Of a DNA stretch of 64,000 nt, positions 12,304 through 60,647 are shown piece after piece. How positions within the stretch are numbered: the stretch's first letter is position 1; the number at the start of each line of letters is the position of its first letter. A model generated the notes under the pieces. The model did no database searches, had not been told where the DNA came from, and saw only the letters and a program-made list of their open reading frames with translations. A program made the position numbers and the translations under genes. Source of the DNA: Candidatus Nomurabacteria bacterium (GTDB lineage: Bacteria > Patescibacteriota > Patescibacteriia > HK-STAS-PATE-3); contig CP060223.1 in NCBI GenBank assembly GCA_023898465.1, positions 576,001 through 640,000 on the forward strand, given 5' to 3'.

Positions 12304-12421
12304 TCGACCTCAGGAAGATGTACGTCAAAAATGACAAACTTGACCTTTTGCTGAGCCTTTGTAAACTGCCGACACTAAGGAATTCTTTGCACTTTCACAA
12401 TCTACTAGGAGGAGAGCGACA

Positions 12422-20638: not shown

Positions 20639-20666
20639 TTGACATTCGGTTTTTCTTCGGTATATC
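20639..20666 (+). promoter_or_regulatory. lexA promoter (TTGACA-16-TATATC) with the 16-mer TTCGGTTTTTCTTCGG occupying the spacer. Candidate LexA operator.
   Basis: cTTGACAtTTCGGTTTTTCTTCGGTATATCatagtcacATG. The identical 16-mer recurs at 21321-21336. Confidence 0.5.
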
Positions 20667-20674
20667 ATAGTCAC

Positions 20675-21301
20675 ATGACCGTTGTACTACCAAAGAAGAA
20701 ACAAGAGCTCCTGAAATACCTTCAGGAATATATTACTGAACATAGCTACGCCCCTACCCTGACCGAGATAGCGAAAAAGTTTGGCGTGTCCTCACTTGCT
20801 ACGATTCACGAGCATCTCGCCTTTTTAGAGGAGAACGGCTTTATCCGTCGTGATAAGCAACAAGCCCGTGGAATTACCCTGCTCAATCCAGAGGATAACG
20901 CTACGCAAAGTGAAAGCGCCTTGAATACAATAGAATTACCAATCGTTGGGGTTATCACCGCAGGTGCACCAATTGAGGCTATTGAGGATCGCGACCGCAC
21001 GCTTTCCGTCCCCCAGGAAATCGCTGGCCGTAAAAACGCCTATGTATTAAAGGTGCGCGGCGATTCTATGATTGAAAGTCTCATTGCTGACGGTGATTTC
21101 GTTGTTGTAGAAAAAACTGAATACGCAAAAGATGGTGACACTGTTGTAGCAATGCTAGAGGACGGCACCGCTACCTTAAAGAAATTCTTTAAGCATAAGA
21201 GCTATATTCGCCTACAACCAGCTAACAAGGCATATGCACCAATTAAAGTACCATCCGTAGTTATTCAAGGACGCGTACTTGGTGTCATGCGCAAAATGTA
21301 A
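20675..21301 (+). CDS. lexA: LexA repressor (S24 peptidase family)
   Basis: N-terminal wHTH (LTEIAKKFGVSSLATIHEHLAFLEENGFI). C-terminal S24 domain with GDSM (Ser nucleophile) and a later Lys. Start moved to the internal Met at 20675 because the promoter lies inside the longer annotated ORF. Confidence 0.85.
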   Translation: MTVVLPKKKQELLKYLQEYITEHSYAPTLTEIAKKFGVSSLATIHEHLAFLEENGFIRRDKQQARGITLLNPEDNATQSESALNTIELPIVGVITAGAPIEAIEDRDRTLSVPQEIAGRKNAYVLKVRGDSMIESLIADGDFVVVEKTEYAKDGDTVVAMLEDGTATLKKFFKHKSYIRLQPANKAYAPIKVPSVVIQGRVLGVMRKM

Positions 21302-21320
21302 TTTTTATTTATCTTTTATC

Positions 21321-21336
21321 TTCGGTTTTTCTTCGG
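21321..21336 (+). promoter_or_regulatory. Second copy of TTCGGTTTTTCTTCGG, 3 nt upstream of the Y-family polymerase start codon
   Basis: tatcTTCGGTTTTTCTTCGGcctATG. Exact 16/16 identity to the lexA promoter element. Confidence 0.45.
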
Positions 21337-21339
21337 CCT

Positions 21340-22527
21340 ATGAAACCCTCCCCTCTTATCAAGCGTTATATCCACGTCCGTTTAAATAGTTTTCTCGCTA
21401 GTATTGTTGAGAGAGAAAACCCCAAACTACAGGGTCGGCCTATTGTAATAAGCGAAATGCATAATAATGAAGAACGCGTGCTGAGTTGTAATATCCCAGC
21501 AAAAAAGCTAGGCATCCAAAAGGGCGATACAATTTTACAGGCAAAGAAGCGCTGTACTTGGGTGGCGGTATTTCCTAGTGACATTGAATTAGCAAAAACC
21601 TATGCGAAAGAGTTTATTGCCCTACTCTGTCGATTTTCCACTAAGGTCTATCCGCATAATCGTTTAGACGAAGCCTACATTGAGCTAGACGTCAGTGGAA
21701 TTGCTGCAAGCTCTCCAGAGGAGTTTGCGGCAACTATCCAGCGAAGCATTAAGGTACAACTTGGTTTAAATGCTAGCATTGGAATTGCACGCACTCGTTC
21801 GGTTGCCTGGAGCGCTGCACTGCATAAGCAGCCCGAAGGGATTACCAGTGTGCCTATTGGTAGTGAGCGCGCTTTTCTTTACCCTCTTCCACTTACTCAG
21901 CTCTACTCGCTGGGACAGCGCTCACGCGAATACCTCCTCTCGCATGGTATTCGGACTATTGGCCAACTAGCTGCTTGCTCCAGTAATTGGTTAGTGGAAC
22001 AGTTTGGCAGTGCAGGATATGAGCTACTTCAGTTAGGTCATGGCCAGGATATAAAAGAAGTGAAAACGCCAACTTTACAGAAGTCTATTTCGCGCTCACT
22101 TCGCTTCGAGGCTCCAACAAGTAATCCTGCATTAATTGAAACTACAGTAGCTCACTTAAGTGAAAAGGCTCTTCGTACGCTCCAAAAGCAGGGTCGACGT
22201 GCTGAGACCGTGGTGCTGCAAGTGACCGACATTTACGGTCGCTCACACCAAAGTCATGCAAAACTTTCTAGCTCACGAAACTCATTCCAAAAAGGACTTT
22301 ACAGTGTTTTTCGTCATCTTACCGCTCAGGTGAGCGCTATTCGTTCTATTGCCGTGCAGCTGCACACGTTGCTAGAAACACCGCAGGAGCAACCAAATCG
22401 TGTATGGCAAAGTCAGCCGGTACAATCAGCTATTTTAGGTCTAGAGTGGAGATCGGGTCAGCGGGCCAGAAAAGCAGCAAGATCAGGCAGCTTGGTGCAG
22501 TTACCACTACTCGGTATGAGCGCTTAG
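21340..22527 (+). CDS. Y-family DNA polymerase homolog (DinB/ImuB-like) lacking the first catalytic Asp motif
   Basis: N-terminus YIHVRLNSFLASIVERENPKLQGRPIVIS aligns to the DinB IHVDMDCFFAAVE...GKPVAV, but DMD is replaced by RLN. The second acidic motif is retained (LDEAYIELD). 395 aa. Confidence 0.65.
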   Translation: MKPSPLIKRYIHVRLNSFLASIVERENPKLQGRPIVISEMHNNEERVLSCNIPAKKLGIQKGDTILQAKKRCTWVAVFPSDIELAKTYAKEFIALLCRFSTKVYPHNRLDEAYIELDVSGIAASSPEEFAATIQRSIKVQLGLNASIGIARTRSVAWSAALHKQPEGITSVPIGSERAFLYPLPLTQLYSLGQRSREYLLSHGIRTIGQLAACSSNWLVEQFGSAGYELLQLGHGQDIKEVKTPTLQKSISRSLRFEAPTSNPALIETTVAHLSEKALRTLQKQGRRAETVVLQVTDIYGRSHQSHAKLSSSRNSFQKGLYSVFRHLTAQVSAIRSIAVQLHTLLETPQEQPNRVWQSQPVQSAILGLEWRSGQRARKAARSGSLVQLPLLGMSA

Positions 22528-30708: not shown

Positions 30709-33081
30709 ATGCGAATCTTCGCACTAAAAACACTACGTCTCCTTAGTACTCCAGCCCGCAGCATTCTTGTGGGTGGACTTATTTTCGGTTTAATCGCCCA
30801 GCCACTGCTATCGGCTGCTGCGGTCCTGCCTCTTGATCAGGATGGTTCTGAGGGCGGTGGCGGTGGAATCGCCCCACAAACACAAGGCACTGACCAGCTT
30901 GTATTCGAAAAAACCTTTGATACAAACAGCCCTGCTGGAATGGCGAACTACATTCTTTCTTATGAGAATACAGGCGCTGTGCCGGTCTATAACGCTGTAG
31001 TCACTGACACCTTGCCTGATGAATTGCAATATCTCAGCTCAACTCCAAGCGGAAATGAAGCCGGTGGGGTTATTAAGTGGGATTTAGGCACTTTGGGCGC
31101 TGGTGTTTCGGGTGAAATTTATCTAAGCACAGTCATCGATAATGAAGCACTTGAGAACTGCGCTGACCTAACCAACACGGCCAATTTACAGGCAAAGCGA
31201 CCCGACACAACTCCGGTTGATCATCGTTTTGATATTACGGTCACTTCCACGGAAAATTTCTGCCCAATGGCGCCAGATCTCAGCATTACCAAGACCATTG
31301 TTGAGGAACAGCTTGGCTACATCGATTACACTCTCACCTATGAGAATAACGGTGACTGGCCAGCTTACAATGTGGAGATTCGGGATGTCCTGCCAAGCGG
31401 TTTAGCTGATATGGAAATCGATCCCCAACCAACTTTGGATGGAAATGACGCCGTATGGAACATTGATGCTATTCAGCCTGGTGATGGCGATACGATTTCA
31501 TTCCGCGTATGGTTTGACGCAAGTCAAGCTACTTGTGGTCCAATCGTAAATACCGCAACCATTACTCAACAAGACGGTCCTACACTGCAGGCCCAATATC
31601 GTGAGCGCAACCTCTCAAACAACGAGAGTCAAGTCAGCACTCAGCAGATCTATGGCATCTGTACTGGCACCATCCAGGGTCAGAAATGGAATGATGAAGA
31701 TGCAAATGGCATCTGGGACAATGCTGAAACAGGACTTGAGGGTTGGACTATCAACCTCCTGACTTCCTGCTCTCAGGATTTTGACGACTATAATTACGAC
31801 AGCACGAATGATGTTATTGATCTCGGTGACTTTGTTGGCTGGACCGATCACTACGTGCACAACATGGCTGATGCCGATCTTAACCAAGATGGCATCCTCA
31901 GTAAGCTTGACTTAAGCTGTCTCGGGATTTGGTTTAATAACGGACCAATCACTGATAGCATGTCTCTCGTCGCAAGTGACGTTACTGATGCTAATGGCAA
32001 CTATGTTTTTGACGGATTAGAAAAAGGTAGCTACTGGCTAAATGAAACTATGCAAGACGGATGGGAACAAAGCTTCCCTCTTCTTGATCCGATTGGTCCG
32101 TACAGCATTATCAGCGATGGCCAAGTGTTACAAGGAAGTGACTTTGGTAACCACGTAATTGATGATGGTGATAATCAAGGAGAGCGAACTCCTGTTATCA
32201 CACTAGAGAAAGAGGCTCTGGCAAATGCTAGCGCAAGTGGTGCTAATGTTTCCTATCTCTTAAACTACACCGTTGCTGATGCTACAGCTACAAATCTGGT
32301 CTTGGTAGATCAACTGCCACAGTACACAAACTTTATTAGCGCAAGTGACAGCGGCGTCTATGATGCAAATGCGCGAACAGTGACATGGAGCCTCGGCACA
32401 GTGAATCCAGGCAGCTATTCTGTTTCCATCACCTTAGCGCTTGATGACACAATCCCGGATGGCACCGTGGTAACAAACACTGCCCTACTCTCCGGTGACC
32501 GACTTACCCAAATCCAGGATAATGCAGAAGTGACTGTTTCATCTCAACCAGTCTTAAGCGTTGAAAAATTAGTAAACGTAAGTACAGCAAAAACTGGCGA
32601 AACTCTGCTCTATACTGTTCGCATTAGCAACGAGGGTAGCGATGTTGCTCATAATGTTAGCTTGAGCGATGTACTGCCACAAGGATTCCTCACTACTGAA
32701 AATAGCCTCGCCTCCTTCACTAAGAATTTGGGCGACCTGGCAGTTGGTGATTCCATTAGCACCTCATATGAAGTAACAGTCGGCAACAGCGTAAGCAGCG
32801 GTGACTATGTAAACACTGCAACAGCCAGAGCTGACAACGCTGACCCAGTGACAGCAACTGCTACGGTAAGCGTCAGTGCTGGTCAAGTACTTGGCGTCTC
32901 TGATGAAGCAAGTACAGAAGATACCAACACCGCGCAAGGTCAGGTGTTAGGTGCTGAGGACACGCTGCCAGAAACAGGTGCAGGAGTTATGGACTACCTC
33001 CTCCTCATCCTTGCTTCAGTAATTATTGTAGCTGGCGCGCTCACACTCCGCCGCAGCTACAGCCGCAGCCACCTTAACTAA
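30709..33081 (+). CDS. Cell-surface protein with DUF11/CnaB-like repeats and C-terminal LPxTG sorting signal
   Basis: Signal peptide. Repeated Thr/Asn-rich beta domains. C-terminal LPETGAG then hydrophobic helix and RRSYSRSHLN positive tail. Confidence 0.75.
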   Translation: MRIFALKTLRLLSTPARSILVGGLIFGLIAQPLLSAAAVLPLDQDGSEGGGGGIAPQTQGTDQLVFEKTFDTNSPAGMANYILSYENTGAVPVYNAVVTDTLPDELQYLSSTPSGNEAGGVIKWDLGTLGAGVSGEIYLSTVIDNEALENCADLTNTANLQAKRPDTTPVDHRFDITVTSTENFCPMAPDLSITKTIVEEQLGYIDYTLTYENNGDWPAYNVEIRDVLPSGLADMEIDPQPTLDGNDAVWNIDAIQPGDGDTISFRVWFDASQATCGPIVNTATITQQDGPTLQAQYRERNLSNNESQVSTQQIYGICTGTIQGQKWNDEDANGIWDNAETGLEGWTINLLTSCSQDFDDYNYDSTNDVIDLGDFVGWTDHYVHNMADADLNQDGILSKLDLSCLGIWFNNGPITDSMSLVASDVTDANGNYVFDGLEKGSYWLNETMQDGWEQSFPLLDPIGPYSIISDGQVLQGSDFGNHVIDDGDNQGERTPVITLEKEALANASASGANVSYLLNYTVADATATNLVLVDQLPQYTNFISASDSGVYDANARTVTWSLGTVNPGSYSVSITLALDDTIPDGTVVTNTALLSGDRLTQIQDNAEVTVSSQPVLSVEKLVNVSTAKTGETLLYTVRISNEGSDVAHNVSLSDVLPQGFLTTENSLASFTKNLGDLAVGDSISTSYEVTVGNSVSSGDYVNTATARADNADPVTATATVSVSAGQVLGVSDEASTEDTNTAQGQVLGAEDTLPETGAGVMDYLLLILASVIIVAGALTLRRSYSRSHLN

Positions 33082-33087
33082 GAAACA

Positions 33088-34101
33088 ATGCGTACACGGC
33101 AAAACCTCACTGTCATCCTTATCACTTTAGGCCTTCTGACAGGAGGTTTTGCTTCTGCGCAGAGCATCGAGCGGCCAACCCAAACGCAAGTTCCAATTGT
33201 ACAGTTAGCGCTAGATGGCCCAAGCCAAGTAGATGCTGGGGCTACTTTTACCTACACACTTCGCTACTCAATTAGCGATTTCAGCACGAGTAATGTTGTC
33301 CTCTCTTTAGCGCTCCCGGCCCGAGCTATTCTGCTTGAGAATAGTGGTAATGGCGCAATCAACGATGTGACGCAAAGTGTAGAATGGAGTTACTCAAACA
33401 AGGAAATTGGCGACTATACCGAGACTGCCACATTTAGCGCCTTAACACCTGCGCCAAATGGTACGGAAATATCTTTTCAGGCAACACTAGACAGTGACGA
33501 GACTGAGGTAATTTCCGCGCAAGCAAACAGCGCAATAATGTCGAGCCCTAAGCTTGAATATCGCTCTCAGCTTTCCTCCCCTATTCTCCAGCCTGGTGGT
33601 GAAATAACCGTAACACTCACTATTGATAATTCTGGTTCTGATGATGCAAATGGTGTGCAATTACATGAAGTACTTCCAGAAGGACTGCATTCCGCTGATC
33701 AAGGAGAGTTGTCATACTCACTCGGCACAATTCCAGCTGGTCAGCAGGTCGAAGTAAGTTATCCGGTGCGCGCTGATGCAGGATTACTCAATCAAGAATA
33801 TATTGGCAAGTTAGCGTTAAGTGCTACAAATGTAGCAATGCAAACATCTGACCATATTTATATTGTTCGGCAGCCTCTCGTTCTAGGAGCAGAGGCTGAG
33901 GCTCTAAATCAAACAAGTCAGGAGTCTGCAGCTCAAGAAGGACAAGTACTCGGCGCAGAGACTGAGTTAAGTCCAACAGGTATGAGCTTCTGGGATTGGC
34001 TACTCATCTATGCTGCCGCTCTCTTATTAGCCCTAGGTGTAACGACTCTTATTTTCGCCCCTCACAGTAAAGAACACGATAAGCGCATTGAAGAAAAATA
34101 A
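33088..34101 (+). CDS. Cell-surface protein with variant sorting signal (LSPTG)
   Basis: Signal peptide. DUF11-like repeats. C-terminal LSPTGMSFWDWLLIYAAALLLALGV then charged tail. Confidence 0.65.
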   Translation: MRTRQNLTVILITLGLLTGGFASAQSIERPTQTQVPIVQLALDGPSQVDAGATFTYTLRYSISDFSTSNVVLSLALPARAILLENSGNGAINDVTQSVEWSYSNKEIGDYTETATFSALTPAPNGTEISFQATLDSDETEVISAQANSAIMSSPKLEYRSQLSSPILQPGGEITVTLTIDNSGSDDANGVQLHEVLPEGLHSADQGELSYSLGTIPAGQQVEVSYPVRADAGLLNQEYIGKLALSATNVAMQTSDHIYIVRQPLVLGAEAEALNQTSQESAAQEGQVLGAETELSPTGMSFWDWLLIYAAALLLALGVTTLIFAPHSKEHDKRIEEK

Positions 34102-34793
34102 TGCCAAGCGATACCAAGGCCTCGGGGGAGCTCAAACAAACTAAGCAGAGCAGTAAGGCAATGCCACAGATTGGATGGAGTCAGCGACGACTTCGCACAG
34201 TGCGTATTCTGGCTATTGTACTTATTCTTATTGGAATTGGCGTTATCCTCTACCCCTTCTTCCCTGCCATTCGCTACGAGCTTTTTCATCCAGAACCCGC
34301 ATATCCCTACAGCACTAAACTACAAGAAACGAATGTCGAGGAAAATGGTGGACACCTCCCAGACGTTGCTGATACACTCCCCTCAGAAAGCCGCCTCGTC
34401 ATCCCAAAAATTGGGGTGAACATGCAGATTGTTGAAGGAGAGAATGAGTCCGCACTTTTCCGCGGATCATGGCGTTTGCCGCAAACTTCGACACCTGAAA
34501 AAGGCGGCAATACAGTCCTGACTGTGCATCGCTTCCAGTATCTCGCCGGACCCAATACCCTCGCCCTGGCTGATCGTTTAGAGGCTGGCGATATCGTGAT
34601 AGTGTATTGGAAAGGACAGGATGGACAAGTAAAAGAGTACGACTACCAAATAAGCAAAACGTATTTAGTCGACCCGCACCAGGTGGAAATCCTCGACAAC
34701 ACTGAGGAGCCTAAACTCACACTTTTCACCTGCGCCCCAATGTTTTCAACCAAACAACGACTCGTTATTGACGGAGCATTAATAGAAAATTAA
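34101..34793 (+). CDS. srt: Sortase (transpeptidase)
   Basis: N-terminal TM anchor. Conserved catalytic H (TVLTVHRFQY) and the TLxTC active-site motif (LTLFTCAP). Confidence 0.8.
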   Translation: MPSDTKASGELKQTKQSSKAMPQIGWSQRRLRTVRILAIVLILIGIGVILYPFFPAIRYELFHPEPAYPYSTKLQETNVEENGGHLPDVADTLPSESRLVIPKIGVNMQIVEGENESALFRGSWRLPQTSTPEKGGNTVLTVHRFQYLAGPNTLALADRLEAGDIVIVYWKGQDGQVKEYDYQISKTYLVDPHQVEILDNTEEPKLTLFTCAPMFSTKQRLVIDGALIEN

Positions 34794-34805
34794 CTATTCA
34801 CCGAT

Positions 34806-35879
34806 ATGGCTATGACTAAACCGCAAACTGTTGGAGGGATGCGAACAATGTCGTGGCGAACTATGCTGAAAAGCATATTCATCGCTGCGTTCGTCTTAGT
34901 AAGTGCCAGCTGGACAAGCACCGTCCTGGCTGAAGAGGCAAATATTGACCTCGTAATCTCCCCTACTCAAGCAGGGATCACGGCGGGAGAAAGTATGCAA
35001 TTCAGCCTGCAGGCCACTAATCGCGATACTGGTGCAAGCTGGGATGCAACTAACTACGCGAGCTTTAGCACTACCGATCCAACCGGCACAATCACTGGGG
35101 GTCTTTATCAGGCTCGCAGTGCCGGGACCTGGACTATTAACGCTGACTACTCCGGCCGTACTATCAGCACGAAGGTAAATGTCACACCTGGCCCTGTTCA
35201 GCACATCGTAATTGATCCGAACTCTTATCCTGAGTATGTCACCGTGACGAAAGTGAAACAGTTCAGCGCTCGAGCCTATGACGCTTGGAATAACCAAATT
35301 TCAAATCCTGAGCTTCGTTGGTCATTAAGCGGAAATATCGGCACCCTCAGTACTGAGGGAGTCTTTACTGCTACGCAAGTTGGCGAAGGCACTATAACCG
35401 TAAGTTCTGAAACTGTCAGCGCCAAAGTAGACGTGGTTGGTCAAACCGCTCGAGTGGTAAATACAAATGTAAGCACTAGTAATGCCAACACATCAAATAG
35501 CAATGTGAGTGAAGAAAATGAGAGTACAAGCGGTGAAGTACTCGGTGAAAATGATGAAATGACTGGTGATGAAGAAATGATGACTGATGAGGAAGCGAAC
35601 GAAGCAAGTTGCTGGGATATCCACTGGTGGGGATGGCTACTCACTATGATCGTTTACTTCGTTCTCCTCTACGGATTCTACTACATGGTTCGAGGCACTG
35701 ATGACAGCTGGATCTGGATTGGACCCGTAGTTCTTACTGCCGCGGCTCTGGCAATCTTCTTTGCCTTCCGCTGCGACGGCACTGCAGCCTGGTTCCCCTG
35801 GCTAAGTATCATCGGCGGACTCTTGATCACGCTTTTCCGCCCATTAAAGTTCGTACCAAAAAACGGCGACTCTCTCTAA
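34806..35879 (+). CDS. Surface/membrane protein with Big_2-like Ig domains and C-terminal TM helices
   Basis: Signal peptide. Ig-like repeats. Acidic linker. C-terminal multi-helix hydrophobic region. Confidence 0.5.
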   Translation: MAMTKPQTVGGMRTMSWRTMLKSIFIAAFVLVSASWTSTVLAEEANIDLVISPTQAGITAGESMQFSLQATNRDTGASWDATNYASFSTTDPTGTITGGLYQARSAGTWTINADYSGRTISTKVNVTPGPVQHIVIDPNSYPEYVTVTKVKQFSARAYDAWNNQISNPELRWSLSGNIGTLSTEGVFTATQVGEGTITVSSETVSAKVDVVGQTARVVNTNVSTSNANTSNSNVSEENESTSGEVLGENDEMTGDEEMMTDEEANEASCWDIHWWGWLLTMIVYFVLLYGFYYMVRGTDDSWIWIGPVVLTAAALAIFFAFRCDGTAAWFPWLSIIGGLLITLFRPLKFVPKNGDSL

Positions 35880-58931: not shown

Positions 58932-59297
58932 CTAGGTGAATAAAAATCGCAGGACCAACAATAGCGCCCCAAGTACACATAACACCGCCCAATTGCGAAA
59001 ACCGTAAGGAGCGTATCGCTTGCCAGCCACTAATTCAAATAATGTCTTTTCATCACCGTAGCGAGCGTGCACAACCCCCAAGGGACAATTTCCATGATTC
59101 AACATCACAATAATCCACTGCCCTGCAAGTAGGGCTATACTGGCAATCGTCCATAAATTAAGCGCCCGGAAAAGACCTGAGTACCAAAGATACCCAGTGG
59201 CTAAAGTCATGCTTATGCCAATAATAAAATGACCAAAGCGCACCACATATACCATTCGCTGATAAGGCTTTGCGGACGACACTGTATTCATATACAT
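58932..59297 (-). CDS. Small membrane protein (possibly DUF2784-like)
   Basis: Three TM helices and an HGNCPLG motif. First gene downstream of RNA element A. Confidence 0.4.
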   Translation of the reverse strand: MYMNTVSSAKPYQRMVYVVRFGHFIIGISMTLATGYLWYSGLFRALNLWTIASIALLAGQWIIVMLNHGNCPLGVVHARYGDEKTLFELVAGKRYAPYGFRNWAVLCVLGALLLVLRFLFT

Positions 59298-59299
59298 AT

Positions 59300-59494
59300 C
59301 CTAGCACAAAGCAGGATGCAAACGCCGAAGACTTGGGCCCGAAGGGTTAAGTCTTCTAGGGGGCCCCGCTGCAAACCAAGGACCTCGAGCCTGCCGAGAG
59401 GGACTGTTTGCAGTGGGGAAAAGGGACATCCTTGCAAAGGGCGCAGTGAAGACAATTTGTTGTCGTCACGGAGCCCACAGCAAGTGATGGCCCG
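59300..59494 (-). ncRNA. Conserved structured RNA element, copy A. Immediately 3' of tRNA-Trp and 5' of a membrane-protein operon.
   Basis: Shares blocks with copy B (60221-60456). Conserved core ATGTCCCTTT..AAACAGTC.CT.TCG.CAGGCTCGAG.TCCTTGGTTT and 3' motif CCCAAGTCTTCGGCGTTTGCA. Stems differ by compensatory changes (CUGCAAAC/GUUUGCAG here, UUUGAAAC/GUUUCAAA in B). Confidence 0.5.
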
Positions 59495-59568
59495 TGGCAG
59501 GGGCGGAAGGTGTCGAACCCTCGTTACCGGTTTTGGAGACCGGTGTTCTACCGTTGAACTACGCCCCC
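59495..59568 (-). tRNA. tRNA-Trp (anticodon CCA), CCA encoded
   Basis: Reverse complement GGGGGCGTAGTTCAACGGTAGAACACCGGTCTCCAAAACCGGTAACGAGGGTTCGACACCTTCCGCCCCTGCCA. Anticodon loop CUCCAAA. Confidence 0.9.
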
Positions 59569-59592
59569 ACAGATTCGTAGAATCAATGAAGA

Positions 59593-59748
59593 CTATTTTG
59601 TCTCTTTATGGAGAGTATGCTTTTTGCACCACTTACAGTGCTTTTTCATCTCAAGTCGACCTTTGAGGGTCTTCTTGTTTTTGAAGCTGTGATAGTTGGT
59701 GCGCTTGCACACCGTGCATTCCAGCTTAATAAGATTATCTTGGGACAT
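59593..59748 (-). CDS. rpmG: 50S ribosomal protein L33
   Basis: [51 protein letters not shown] matches the L33 pattern (C-x2-C...C-x2-C, KETK end). Absent from the supplied ORF track because it is 51 aa. Confidence 0.85.
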
Positions 59749-59787
59749 AGCAGTATATTATTTATGCGTATATTCTTGCCGACCGCC

Positions 59788-59863
59788 TGGAGCCGATGGT
59801 CGGATTCGAACCGACGACCTTCACTTTACAAAAGTGTTGCTCTACCAACTGAGCTACATCGGC
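59788..59863 (-). tRNA. tRNA-Thr (anticodon UGU), CCA encoded
   Basis: Reverse complement GCCGATGTAGCTCAGTTGGTAGAGCAACACTTTTGTAAAGTGAAGGTCGTCGGTTCGAATCCGACCATCGGCTCCA. Confidence 0.88.
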
Positions 59864-59880
59864 GCCCGGCGCTTGGCAAG

Positions 59881-60189
59881 TTATGAAAGCTCTAAGCGAG
59901 GAAAAATATCGATGGCTGGTTCTTCATAAGGGTGCGCCTGCTTCAACGCTATTATTACCTCCTCTACTTTTTCCTTATGACAGAGCATGCGAATCACTTC
60001 CTCTTCCACAATCTCTTCCTGACCAATCTCCCCTATGGCAGGATGCGCTCCCTCTTGCGGGATGAAACGTCCAGTAGTGCGATAGCTTCCACTACAGTGT
60101 GAATAGTTGCCCATCTTCCCTGCGCCAGCATCACCCATTGCCTTACGAACTGCATCAGCTTGGGGCACTGGCACCGAGGTGCGAATCAT
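59881..60189 (-). CDS. Hypothetical small protein (about 103 aa), occupying the position where tuf sits in the conserved Thr-Tyr-(Gly)-Thr-tuf-rpmG-Trp-secE arrangement
   Basis: MIRTSVPVPQADAVRKAMGDAGAGKMGNY...HPYEEPAIDIFPRLE. Start chosen at the internal Met because the longer ORF N-terminus is encoded by RNA element B. Confidence 0.4.
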   Translation of the reverse strand: MIRTSVPVPQADAVRKAMGDAGAGKMGNYSHCSGSYRTTGRFIPQEGAHPAIGEIGQEEIVEEEVIRMLCHKEKVEEVIIALKQAHPYEEPAIDIFPRLELS

Positions 60190-60220
60190 AACGTATTCTG
60201 ATTCTTGAAGTGACATAAGG

Positions 60221-60456
60221 AATAGAGTGCAAACGCCGAAGACTTGGGATTTTTGGGGCTCCATTTGAAACCAAGGATCTCGAGCCTGTCGAAAGAGACT
60301 GTTTCAAATGAGGAAAGGGACATGCGCCGTAAGGGCTTTCAAACGCCGAGCGCTTGGGCCGACAGGTTAAGTGCGAGGCGTAAAGGCACACGCTGGCAAA
60401 GGGTGGAGTGTTCTCGTTTTAACGAGGACACGCAACCCGCAGCCAGCGATGGGCCG
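60221..60456 (-). ncRNA. Conserved structured RNA element, copy B. Immediately 3' of tRNA-Tyr and 5' of the small hypothetical gene.
   Basis: See copy A. Contains an extra roughly 45-nt insertion carrying a third copy of the CCCAAG..TCGGCGTTTG motif. Small hairpin CUCGUU-AAAA-CGAG covaries with GACAA-CAAA-UUGUC in A. Confidence 0.5.
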
Positions 60457-60543
60457 TGGTGGGCCGGGTAGGATTCGAACCTACGAAGGCGCAAGGCCAG
60501 CAGATTTACAGTCTGCCCCCGTTGACCGCTTGGGTACCGACCC
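60457..60543 (-). tRNA. tRNA-Tyr (anticodon GUA) with long variable arm, CCA encoded
   Basis: Reverse complement GGGTCGGTACCCAAGCGGTCAACGGGGGCAGACTGTAAATCTGCTGGCCTTGCGCCTTCGTAGGTTCGAATCCTACCCGGCCCACCA. Confidence 0.9.
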
Positions 60544-60571: not shown

Positions 60572-60647
60572 TGGAGCCGATGAGCGGATTTGAACCGCTG
60601 ACCTACTCCTTACCATGGAGTTGCTCTACCAACTGAGCTACATCGGC
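60572..60647 (-). tRNA. tRNA-Thr (anticodon GGU), CCA encoded
   Basis: Reverse complement GCCGATGTAGCTCAGTTGGTAGAGCAACTCCATGGTAAGGAGTAGGTCAGCGGTTCAAATCCGCTCATCGGCTCCA. 5' half identical to the other tRNA-Thr. Confidence 0.88.

Follow-up and report, generated by a model that had tools for sequence, protein, structure and literature searches.

The stretch of DNA analysed here (the window) comprises 64,000 nucleotides of the genome of a Candidatus Nomurabacteria bacterium (assembly GCA_023898465.1, contig CP060223.1, positions 576,001 to 640,000) and contains two copies, A and B, of a structured element that directly follows tRNA genes. Read along the minus strand, the locus encodes S2, EF-Ts, a TPR protein, tRNA-Thr(GGT) and tRNA-Tyr, followed by element B, the gene for a 111-residue soluble protein, tRNA-Thr(TGT), L33, tRNA-Trp, element A and the gene for a 119-residue membrane protein (Table 1). 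Element A (59292-59494) and element B (60217-60456) lie on this same strand, and each begins with the base that follows the encoded CCA of its tRNA. An earlier note, made from the sequence alone, had described a duplicated element with ordered shared blocks, placed directly 3' of tRNA-Trp and tRNA-Tyr, and was right on both counts.

A and B align with 73% column identity in ordered blocks. In BLAST comparisons their D2 and D3 modules, which make up the 3' two-thirds, match with an E value of 2e-12, and the 5' hairpin, D1, with an E value of 1e-3. Shared blocks of 21 and 37 nucleotides occur only at A and B within the window and were matched in none of 100 shuffles. Both copies fold more stably than shuffled controls, with minimum free energy z-scores of -5.0 for A and -3.8 for B. 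When the window was compared with the covariance models of Rfam 15, only tRNAs passed the gathering threshold and nothing credible lay over A or B even at E values up to 10. Copies in related genomes gave the same picture: only tRNAs passed the threshold, and at E values up to 1 (assemblies L031 and L026) nothing credible overlaps them. A and B are a homologous structured element without an Rfam counterpart. We consider the element previously undescribed and a solid candidate for a new RNA or DNA motif family, suitable for entry as a new family in Rfam.

Does the element carry signals of its own? A scan of the minus strand detected no promoter-like site inside A or B. An intrinsic terminator scan returned 4 hits against 2.1 +/- 1.5 in shuffles, which is no excess, and flagged only the inner D2 hairpin, which lies within a longer helix. 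The sequence 3' of D1 reads UUUU, UUUA, UUUC or UCUC and then becomes C-rich, not a run of at least about five U. An intrinsic terminator was rejected for want of a U tract, and with it the terminator or attenuator that had been proposed for A. A repeat finder applied to the elements reported internal hairpins only, with neither terminal inverted repeats nor flanking direct repeats of the kind left by target duplication; a miniature inverted-repeat transposable element was rejected on these grounds.

The gene-side limits of A and B depend on the start codons. The elements had been thought to end about 5-60 nucleotides ahead of these, but 60216 and 59291 are the likeliest starts, which brings A and B almost up to the start codons. 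ATG 60216 is the probable start of the 111-residue gene because its homologues have 110-111 residues. Start codons near 60192-60216 and 59291-59297 look mis-set, and the deposited product of the gene after B has 102 residues. The product of the 111-residue gene is identical to hypothetical protein H6760_03175 [Candidatus Nomurabacteria bacterium]. Neither this gene nor the 119-residue gene matched a family in a Pfam scan.

Table 1. Features of the tRNA and element locus in the window, and sites of tRNA rearrangement in related assemblies.
Feature	Position	Strand	Basis or remark
tRNA-Thr(GGT)	60572-60647	-	
tRNA-Tyr (GTA), CCA encoded	60457-60543	-	ARAGORN; Rfam
B, first unit, module D1	60385-60456	-	Fold; alignment; model R1, 95 bits
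B, first unit, complete D3: ACGCC-UC-GCACUU-AA-CC(UGUC)GG-CCC-AAGCGC-UC-GGCGU	60343-60381	-	
B, second unit, 3' fragment of E-type D1, GCCCUUACGGCGCAUGUCCC, 5' half missing	60317-60336	-	Comparison with copy E (L031 11796-11870) and copy C
B, second unit, module D2, outer stem UUUGAAAC/GUUUCAAA	60259-60312	-	Fold; inverted repeat I3
B, second unit, D3 3' half and tail (CCCAAGUCUUCGGCGUUUGCA)	60228-60248	-	Identical to corresponding block of A
111-residue soluble-protein gene, downstream of B	59881-60216	-	Probable start ATG 60216 (MSLQESEYV...)
tRNA-Trp (CCA), CCA encoded	59495-59568	-	ARAGORN; Rfam tRNA, 65.3 bits
A, module D1, 72-nucleotide hairpin, two helices, 3x3 internal loop (UGY/UUU), conserved U/C bulges, variable tip	59423-59494	-	Fold; alignment; model R1, 99 bits
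A, module D2, outer stem CCCC-A-CUGCAAAC/GUUUGCAG-C-GGGG, conserved 6x6 loop AGUCCC/UCCUUG, inner hairpin UCUCGG-CAGGC-UCGAGG	59364-59418	-	Fold; inverted repeat I1
A, module D3 core: GAAGACUU-AA-CCC(UUC)GGG-CCC-AAGUCUUC	59327-59356	-	Fold; inverted repeat I2
A, tail (GGCGUUUGCA...) to probable start codon, with AGGA Shine-Dalgarno-like motif	59292-59326	-	Least conserved part, A versus A' (5 substitutions)
119-residue membrane-protein gene, downstream of A	58932-59291	-	Probable start ATG 59291, matching homologue P0121 (119 residues)
Nested tRNA sites, L002	2390-2965, 3760-4050		
Nested tRNA sites, L005	2590-2850, 3680-3935		
Nested tRNA site, L026	735-955		
Nested tRNA site, L030	2660-2860		
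Nested tRNA site, L031	11150-11795		
Palindromic inserts, L031	11642-11680, 11712-11765		
Palindromic insert, L005	2770-2835		
Palindromic insert, L002	2553-2605		

Hairpin modules and compensatory base changes

The element is assembled from three hairpin modules, of which D1 is present in every copy and touches the CCA, while D2 and D3 are optional. Covariation was assessed on six copies, amounting to five distinct sequences from four related assemblies and one syntenic tRNA cluster. In D1, two helices flank a 3x3 internal loop (U-R-Y opposite U-Y-N); conserved single U and C bases interrupt the pairing, the tip varies, and a C/U-rich linker (UUUCC) comes next. In D2, a GCAAAC/GUUUGC stem encloses the conserved loop AGUCYC/UCCUUG and, optionally, an inner hairpin. 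D3 runs from an outer stem through UC, a 6-bp stem and AA to a hairpin of the form CCC-loop-GGG, and includes a conserved unpaired CCC.

The helices are maintained by paired substitutions. Both sides have changed in 15 of the 25 pairs of D1, and 98% of cells are standard pairs; when the 3' partners were slid by 1-3 columns only 39-54% remained paired, and none of 500 shuffles reached the observed values. Compensatory pairs number 6 of 19 in D2 and 6 of 14 in D3. The covariation first noticed between A and B therefore persists once four homologues are added, and the helices singled out at the time (CUGCAAAC/GUUUGCAG against UUUGAAAC/GUUUCAAA, and GACAA/UUGUC against CUCGU/ACGAG) are real. The UUCG tetraloop once read in A is instead a variable loop of 3-4 nucleotides (UUC, UAC or UAUC). 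An alternative pairing of the GUUUGCA tail with the 5' strand of D2 was rejected, as it does not covary in B.

On which strand does the structure act? Across all modules, 14 G.U and 7 A.C combinations were counted among 305 cells, and calculated energies make the consensus helices about equally stable on either strand. The claim that only the minus strand allows the pairing is accordingly weak. Taken whole, the antisense strand folds more stably than the sense strand, because it is G-rich. The constant orientation of the element and its abutment on the CCA would argue for the tRNA strand.

Copies in related assemblies and their turnover

Further copies were reached at syntenic loci through the neighbouring proteins, which extended the search to related genomes and gave four more copies in three related assemblies. 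A Logan assembly (L027), whose 119-residue protein is 98% identical, carries copy A' after a tRNA-Trp. A JGI assembly (L026; 111-residue protein 76% identical) has copy C after tRNA-Tyr. In GCA_043800725.1 (L031; TPR protein 57% identical), copy D follows tRNA-Thr(GGT) and copy E follows a tRNA-Tyr. All six copies start at the first base after the CCA, on the strand of the tRNA, be it Trp, Tyr or Thr. The element is absent from other orthologous sites: in L005 and L002 (74% and 72% identical) it is missing after tRNA-Trp and after tRNA-Tyr, where a spacer of 25-36 nucleotides leads to the orthologue of the 111-residue gene; L030 lacks it after tRNA-Thr(GGT), and L031 itself lacks it after tRNA-Trp. 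In L031, tRNA-Thr(TGT) is followed at 12340-12350 by CGGGTTAAAC, which matches the first five bases of a C/E-type D1 before breaking off; this could be the footprint of a lost element or a coincidence.

With its filters off, a covariance model of D1 (R1) found no other copy in the 64 kb of the window or in 52 kb of related loci, about 116 kb altogether. Pattern scans of genome_contigs and metagenome_contigs, run with patterns from A and B alone before the other subtypes were known, yielded chance matches only. Scans of viral contigs with D2, D1 and D3 patterns and BLASTN searches of phages and plasmids gave no match.

The copies differ in their makeup. D and E consist of D1 and D3 (about 120 nucleotides), and A and A' of D1, D2 and D3 plus a tail. 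B, which had been taken for a single unit, in fact holds two, a D1+D3 unit first and behind it a D1+D2+D3 unit with a truncated 5' end; in the latter, the 3' fragment of an E-type D1 (GCCCUUACGGCGCAUGUCCC) leads through UUUCC to D2 and the 3' half of D3. In copy C, a complete unit is trailed by a fragment of an E-type D1 and by a minimal D2. Since both B and C keep an E-type D1 fragment behind a complete unit, the tRNA-Tyr site appears to hold an older E-type unit behind a newer one that adjoins the CCA. Identities between D1 sequences tell a similar story: A (tRNA-Trp, window) and D (tRNA-Thr, L031) are 84% identical, A and B from the same genome 64%, and D and E, both from L031, 56%, so that subtypes cut across genomes and tRNA identity. 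This mosaic, stacked and patchy pattern, which the earlier note had missed, suggests gain, loss and recombination, or mobility.

Individual copies can nonetheless be highly conserved. A and A' differ by 9 substitutions and 2 gaps in 205 columns (about 5%), with none in the first 105 nucleotides, whereas 25 of 58 four-fold degenerate sites (43%) differ in the adjacent gene. Divergence rises along the element, from 0% in D1 through about 4% in D2 and D3 to about 18% in the tail. Such a gradient is better explained by graded purifying selection acting on a copy passed down by descent than by a single recent transfer. Each copy is conserved well beyond what neutral change would allow, although relatives differ in which copies they have gained or lost.

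The same tRNA loci are rearranged in other ways. In relatives, a whole inner tRNA, flanked by an inverted repeat of 11-12 nucleotides (for example cccgcaccttc...gaaggtgcggg), splits an outer tRNA-Thr, -Tyr or -Trp of matching identity; in the window itself the tRNAs are intact. These nested genes look like tRNA-carrying homing cassettes or split or intron-containing tRNAs. Small GIY-YIG nuclease ORFs (open reading frames) lie at L031 11292-11530 and L002 2617-2862 (Pfam E values 8e-16 and 4e-15), immediately upstream of the inner tRNA-Tyr and inside the disrupted outer one, and the GIY-YIG/tRNA-Tyr cassette is bounded by duplicated GGGCAGACT; the arrangement suggests that the nuclease comes with a replacement tRNA of its own. 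Short GC-rich palindromic inserts, unrelated in sequence to A and B, interrupt the outer tRNAs in the anticodon, where they separate G34 from U35 in tRNA-Tyr, and in the T-loop, examples being CCACCGCC...GGCGG and TCCCGC...GCGGGA. At L031 13535-17443, a gene for an AEP-primase/helicase and a Fic gene lie between two copies of tRNA-Trp, of which the first lacks its CCA, in what looks like an island integrated at tRNA-Trp. No description of the nested tRNA arrangement was found in the literature searched. The one account found there of unusual tRNA loci in this phylum concerns group I introns (PMC13011429) and makes no mention of trailers or hairpin elements.

Elsewhere in the window, a LexA and Y-family polymerase pair (20639-22527) and a DUF11 surface-repeat cluster with a sortase (30709-35879) form ordinary context.

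Possible roles at the tRNA 3' end

What could such an element do? There is no room for a promoter in the spacer and none was detected, so the element is probably transcribed together with the tRNA. It would then form the 3' trailer of the tRNA and the 5' end of whichever RNA comes next. The downstream partners vary, orthologous genes occur without the element, the gene-side part is the least conserved, and the tRNA-side part is invariant and shows the strongest conservation; the element is therefore tied to the tRNA end and not to a gene. As the tRNA 3' end is its only constant partner, D1 most likely works there, and the element does not appear to be a sensor for the downstream gene. Our tentative preference, which we hold as something just short of probable, is for a lineage-restricted family of tRNA 3'-trailer modules in a subgroup of Patescibacteria ('Ca. 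Nomurabacteria'-like), co-transcribed with the tRNA, in which D1 is a processing or insulating structure and units are gained, lost and stacked by recombination. D1 could provide a structure-defined signal, an endonuclease entry site adjoining the CCA, and cleavage there would leave a protective 5'-terminal hairpin on the downstream RNA. New units would enter by recombination at the CCA junction and shift older units downstream.

Several points weigh against this reading. Co-transcription and processing are deduced from position. Unless a dedicated endonuclease cut at this point, a hairpin abutting the CCA would get in the way of exonucleolytic trimming from the 3' end. Structure, as judged by wobble pairs and energies, does not fix the strand, and a share of G.U below 5% of cells suits DNA palindromes as well as RNA. 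The tRNA-Trp gene (window 59495-59568; L027 29-102) is only 84% identical between the two genomes, against 95% of nucleotides for the element downstream and 98% of amino acids for the gene, which places a recombination breakpoint at the junction of tRNA and element and shows that the tRNA itself has been exchanged. The near-identity of A and A' could accordingly stem from recent spread or gene conversion. The evidence base, finally, is five distinct sequences in four related assemblies at one syntenic tRNA cluster.

Could the element instead be selfish DNA, a hairpin repeat that is mobile or recombines and has tRNA 3' ends as its target, with hairpins serving a transposase or recombinase as single-stranded or cruciform recognition structures and any effect on RNA a by-product? 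We regard this chief rival as a doubtful but genuine possibility. It would account for patchy presence at orthologous sites, for new units next to the CCA with older, truncated ones behind, for D1 subtypes that cut across genomes and tRNA identities, and for the near-identity of A and A' despite 43% four-fold divergence next door. Pairing is almost entirely Watson-Crick and equal on both strands, the 5' junction is fixed without terminal inverted repeats or target duplications, as in HUH-type elements, and the locus is a hotspot of mobile DNA in relatives (GIY-YIG and tRNA cassettes). Pfam scans of the 47 ORFs of the window, however, turned up housekeeping functions but nothing of the transposase, integrase, reverse transcriptase or HUH kind. 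Nor was any copy found outside tRNA trailers in the sequence searched, and the graded conservation of A and A' fits constraint in place better than a single recent insertion.

Comparison with hairpin-ended mobile elements points both ways. Like IS200/IS605 ends, PATEs, REP/RAYT repeats and attC sites, the element keeps its structure by compensatory change as its sequence drifts, lacks terminal inverted repeats and target duplications, has a fixed flank on one side and carries its newest unit next to the fixed site. Set against the criteria for PATE and REP repeats, the fixed CCA flank and the hairpins are present and inverted repeats and duplications are absent; the hairpin starts 1 nucleotide from the junction. 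Left ends of the IS608 type have a guide or spacer region between hairpin and junction, unlike D1, whose foot leaves no space for one. The units hold no ORF, and no cognate transposase or integrase is encoded in the window. D1 resembles attC in its two helices, central unpaired spacer, extrahelical bases and variable tip. An integron attC site was rejected: the base of D1 reads GGGNCAU.../...GUGNCCC, the UGCAAAC/GUUUGCA of D2 fits only the AAC/GTT core, the R-box (RYYYAAC/GTTRRRY) is missing and the window has no integrase.

It is improbable, in our judgement, that the element is a stable trans-acting small RNA (sRNA) released from the tRNA precursor. The precedent is 3'ETS-leuZ of Escherichia coli: there the stretch just behind a tRNA in a polycistronic precursor yields a functional RNA, whose 5' end is fixed when the tRNA is processed (reviewed in PMC8383071). 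The present element likewise lies in the tRNA 3' trailer, at the base after the CCA in six of six copies and without an internal promoter-like site, so that processing enzymes would define its 5' end; its folds are compact, GC-rich and conserved, and conserved unpaired blocks (AGUCYC/UCCUUG, CUUAACCC..GGGCCCAAG and the C/U-rich linkers) could pair with targets. Against this, A and B run into the next start codon without a terminator or defined 3' end, modules are optional and in some copies truncated, there is no known target or chaperone, and relatives dispense with the element entirely. The leuZ sponge, moreover, is short, stems from a single locus and pairs with Hfq-bound sRNAs, whereas the element is a modular family with multiple copies.

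A gene-specific cis-regulatory leader (a riboswitch, an attenuator or a ribosomal protein leader), which the earlier note had thought possible, is very hard to maintain. The element does end at the start codon of the next gene, the C/U-rich linker of copy E can pair with a GGGGGAG Shine-Dalgarno region, and in A a local hairpin can cover the AGGA. The downstream genes, however, are unrelated (a 111-residue soluble and a 119-residue membrane protein), which makes a gene-specific leader unlikely, and the next feature after copy D is another tRNA and not a protein gene. Orthologous genes in L002, L005 and L028 do without the element, and among the recovered contexts of 119-residue gene homologues elsewhere (look-ups including P0122 and P0124) none adjoins a tRNA. 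There is no Rfam match even at E values up to 10 and no terminator-like expression platform, and the gene-proximal part is the least conserved.

An origin from duplicated coding sequence, or from a decayed piece of a tRNA or intron, is hardly credible: short ORFs do overlap both copies and both contain ATGTCCCTTT, but they lie in different frames, the indels between A and B (1, 16 and 67 nucleotides) are not multiples of 3, helix substitutions are compensatory and covariance models detect neither a tRNA nor a group I intron within the elements, so that the duplicated protein-coding N-terminus raised earlier as a refuting case is ruled out. The 145-residue ORF P0144, predicted by gene callers antisense to element A and tRNA-Trp (59229-59666, plus strand), is spurious; among 1.84 billion protein representatives it matched only itself, low-complexity giants and tRNA-antisense artefacts.

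Relation to known systems and implications

The trailer-module reading has partial parallels among known RNA and repeat families. Enterobacterial REP/BIME sequences are mosaic intergenic repeats with comparable traits. According to a published account (PMC3049150), the BOX (boxA-boxB-boxC), RUP and SPRITE repeats of pneumococci are short, modular and structured, co-transcribed with their neighbours and variably present between relatives. The element resembles all of these in being short, ORF-less and lineage-restricted, with hairpin modules in variable order and number. It differs in distribution, since BOX and BIME repeats number tens to hundreds of copies scattered across many intergenic regions and the present copies were found only at tRNA CCA ends in the roughly 116 kb searched; its copies are conserved far above the neutral rate, and it has no sequence similarity to BOX- or BIME-type families. 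Processing hairpins and 5'-terminal stabiliser hairpins are known from R1.1-type RNase III sites of phage T7 and from ompA- and aprE-type 5' stem-loops. By analogy, the element may act as a long imperfect hairpin with internal loops between polycistronic units, or as a 5'-terminal hairpin after a putative cleavage, although such sites do not form a conserved sequence family linked to tRNA ends.

Many RNA-processing enzymes have been lost from Patescibacteria. A bolder form of the trailer-module reading, which we think rather unlikely, would make D1, with D3, a dedicated RNA signal for an undescribed route of tRNA 3' finishing or of tRNA/mRNA separation in these reduced genomes: cleavage at the hairpin base by a structure-specific nuclease would yield a mature CCA, and the module would copy itself, in the manner of a cassette, to other tRNA ends at the CCA junction. 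Should the element turn out to be a hairpin repeat with a specific target site, we know of no earlier one that is confined to tRNA 3' ends, and its stacked units would record successive insertions. With nested tRNA genes and GIY-YIG cassettes also found at this locus in relatives, genetic conflict in the phylum appears to concentrate at tRNA loci. A conserved and covarying structure fixed to the CCA end gives a concrete handle on how tRNAs that are co-transcribed with protein genes mature in Patescibacteria.

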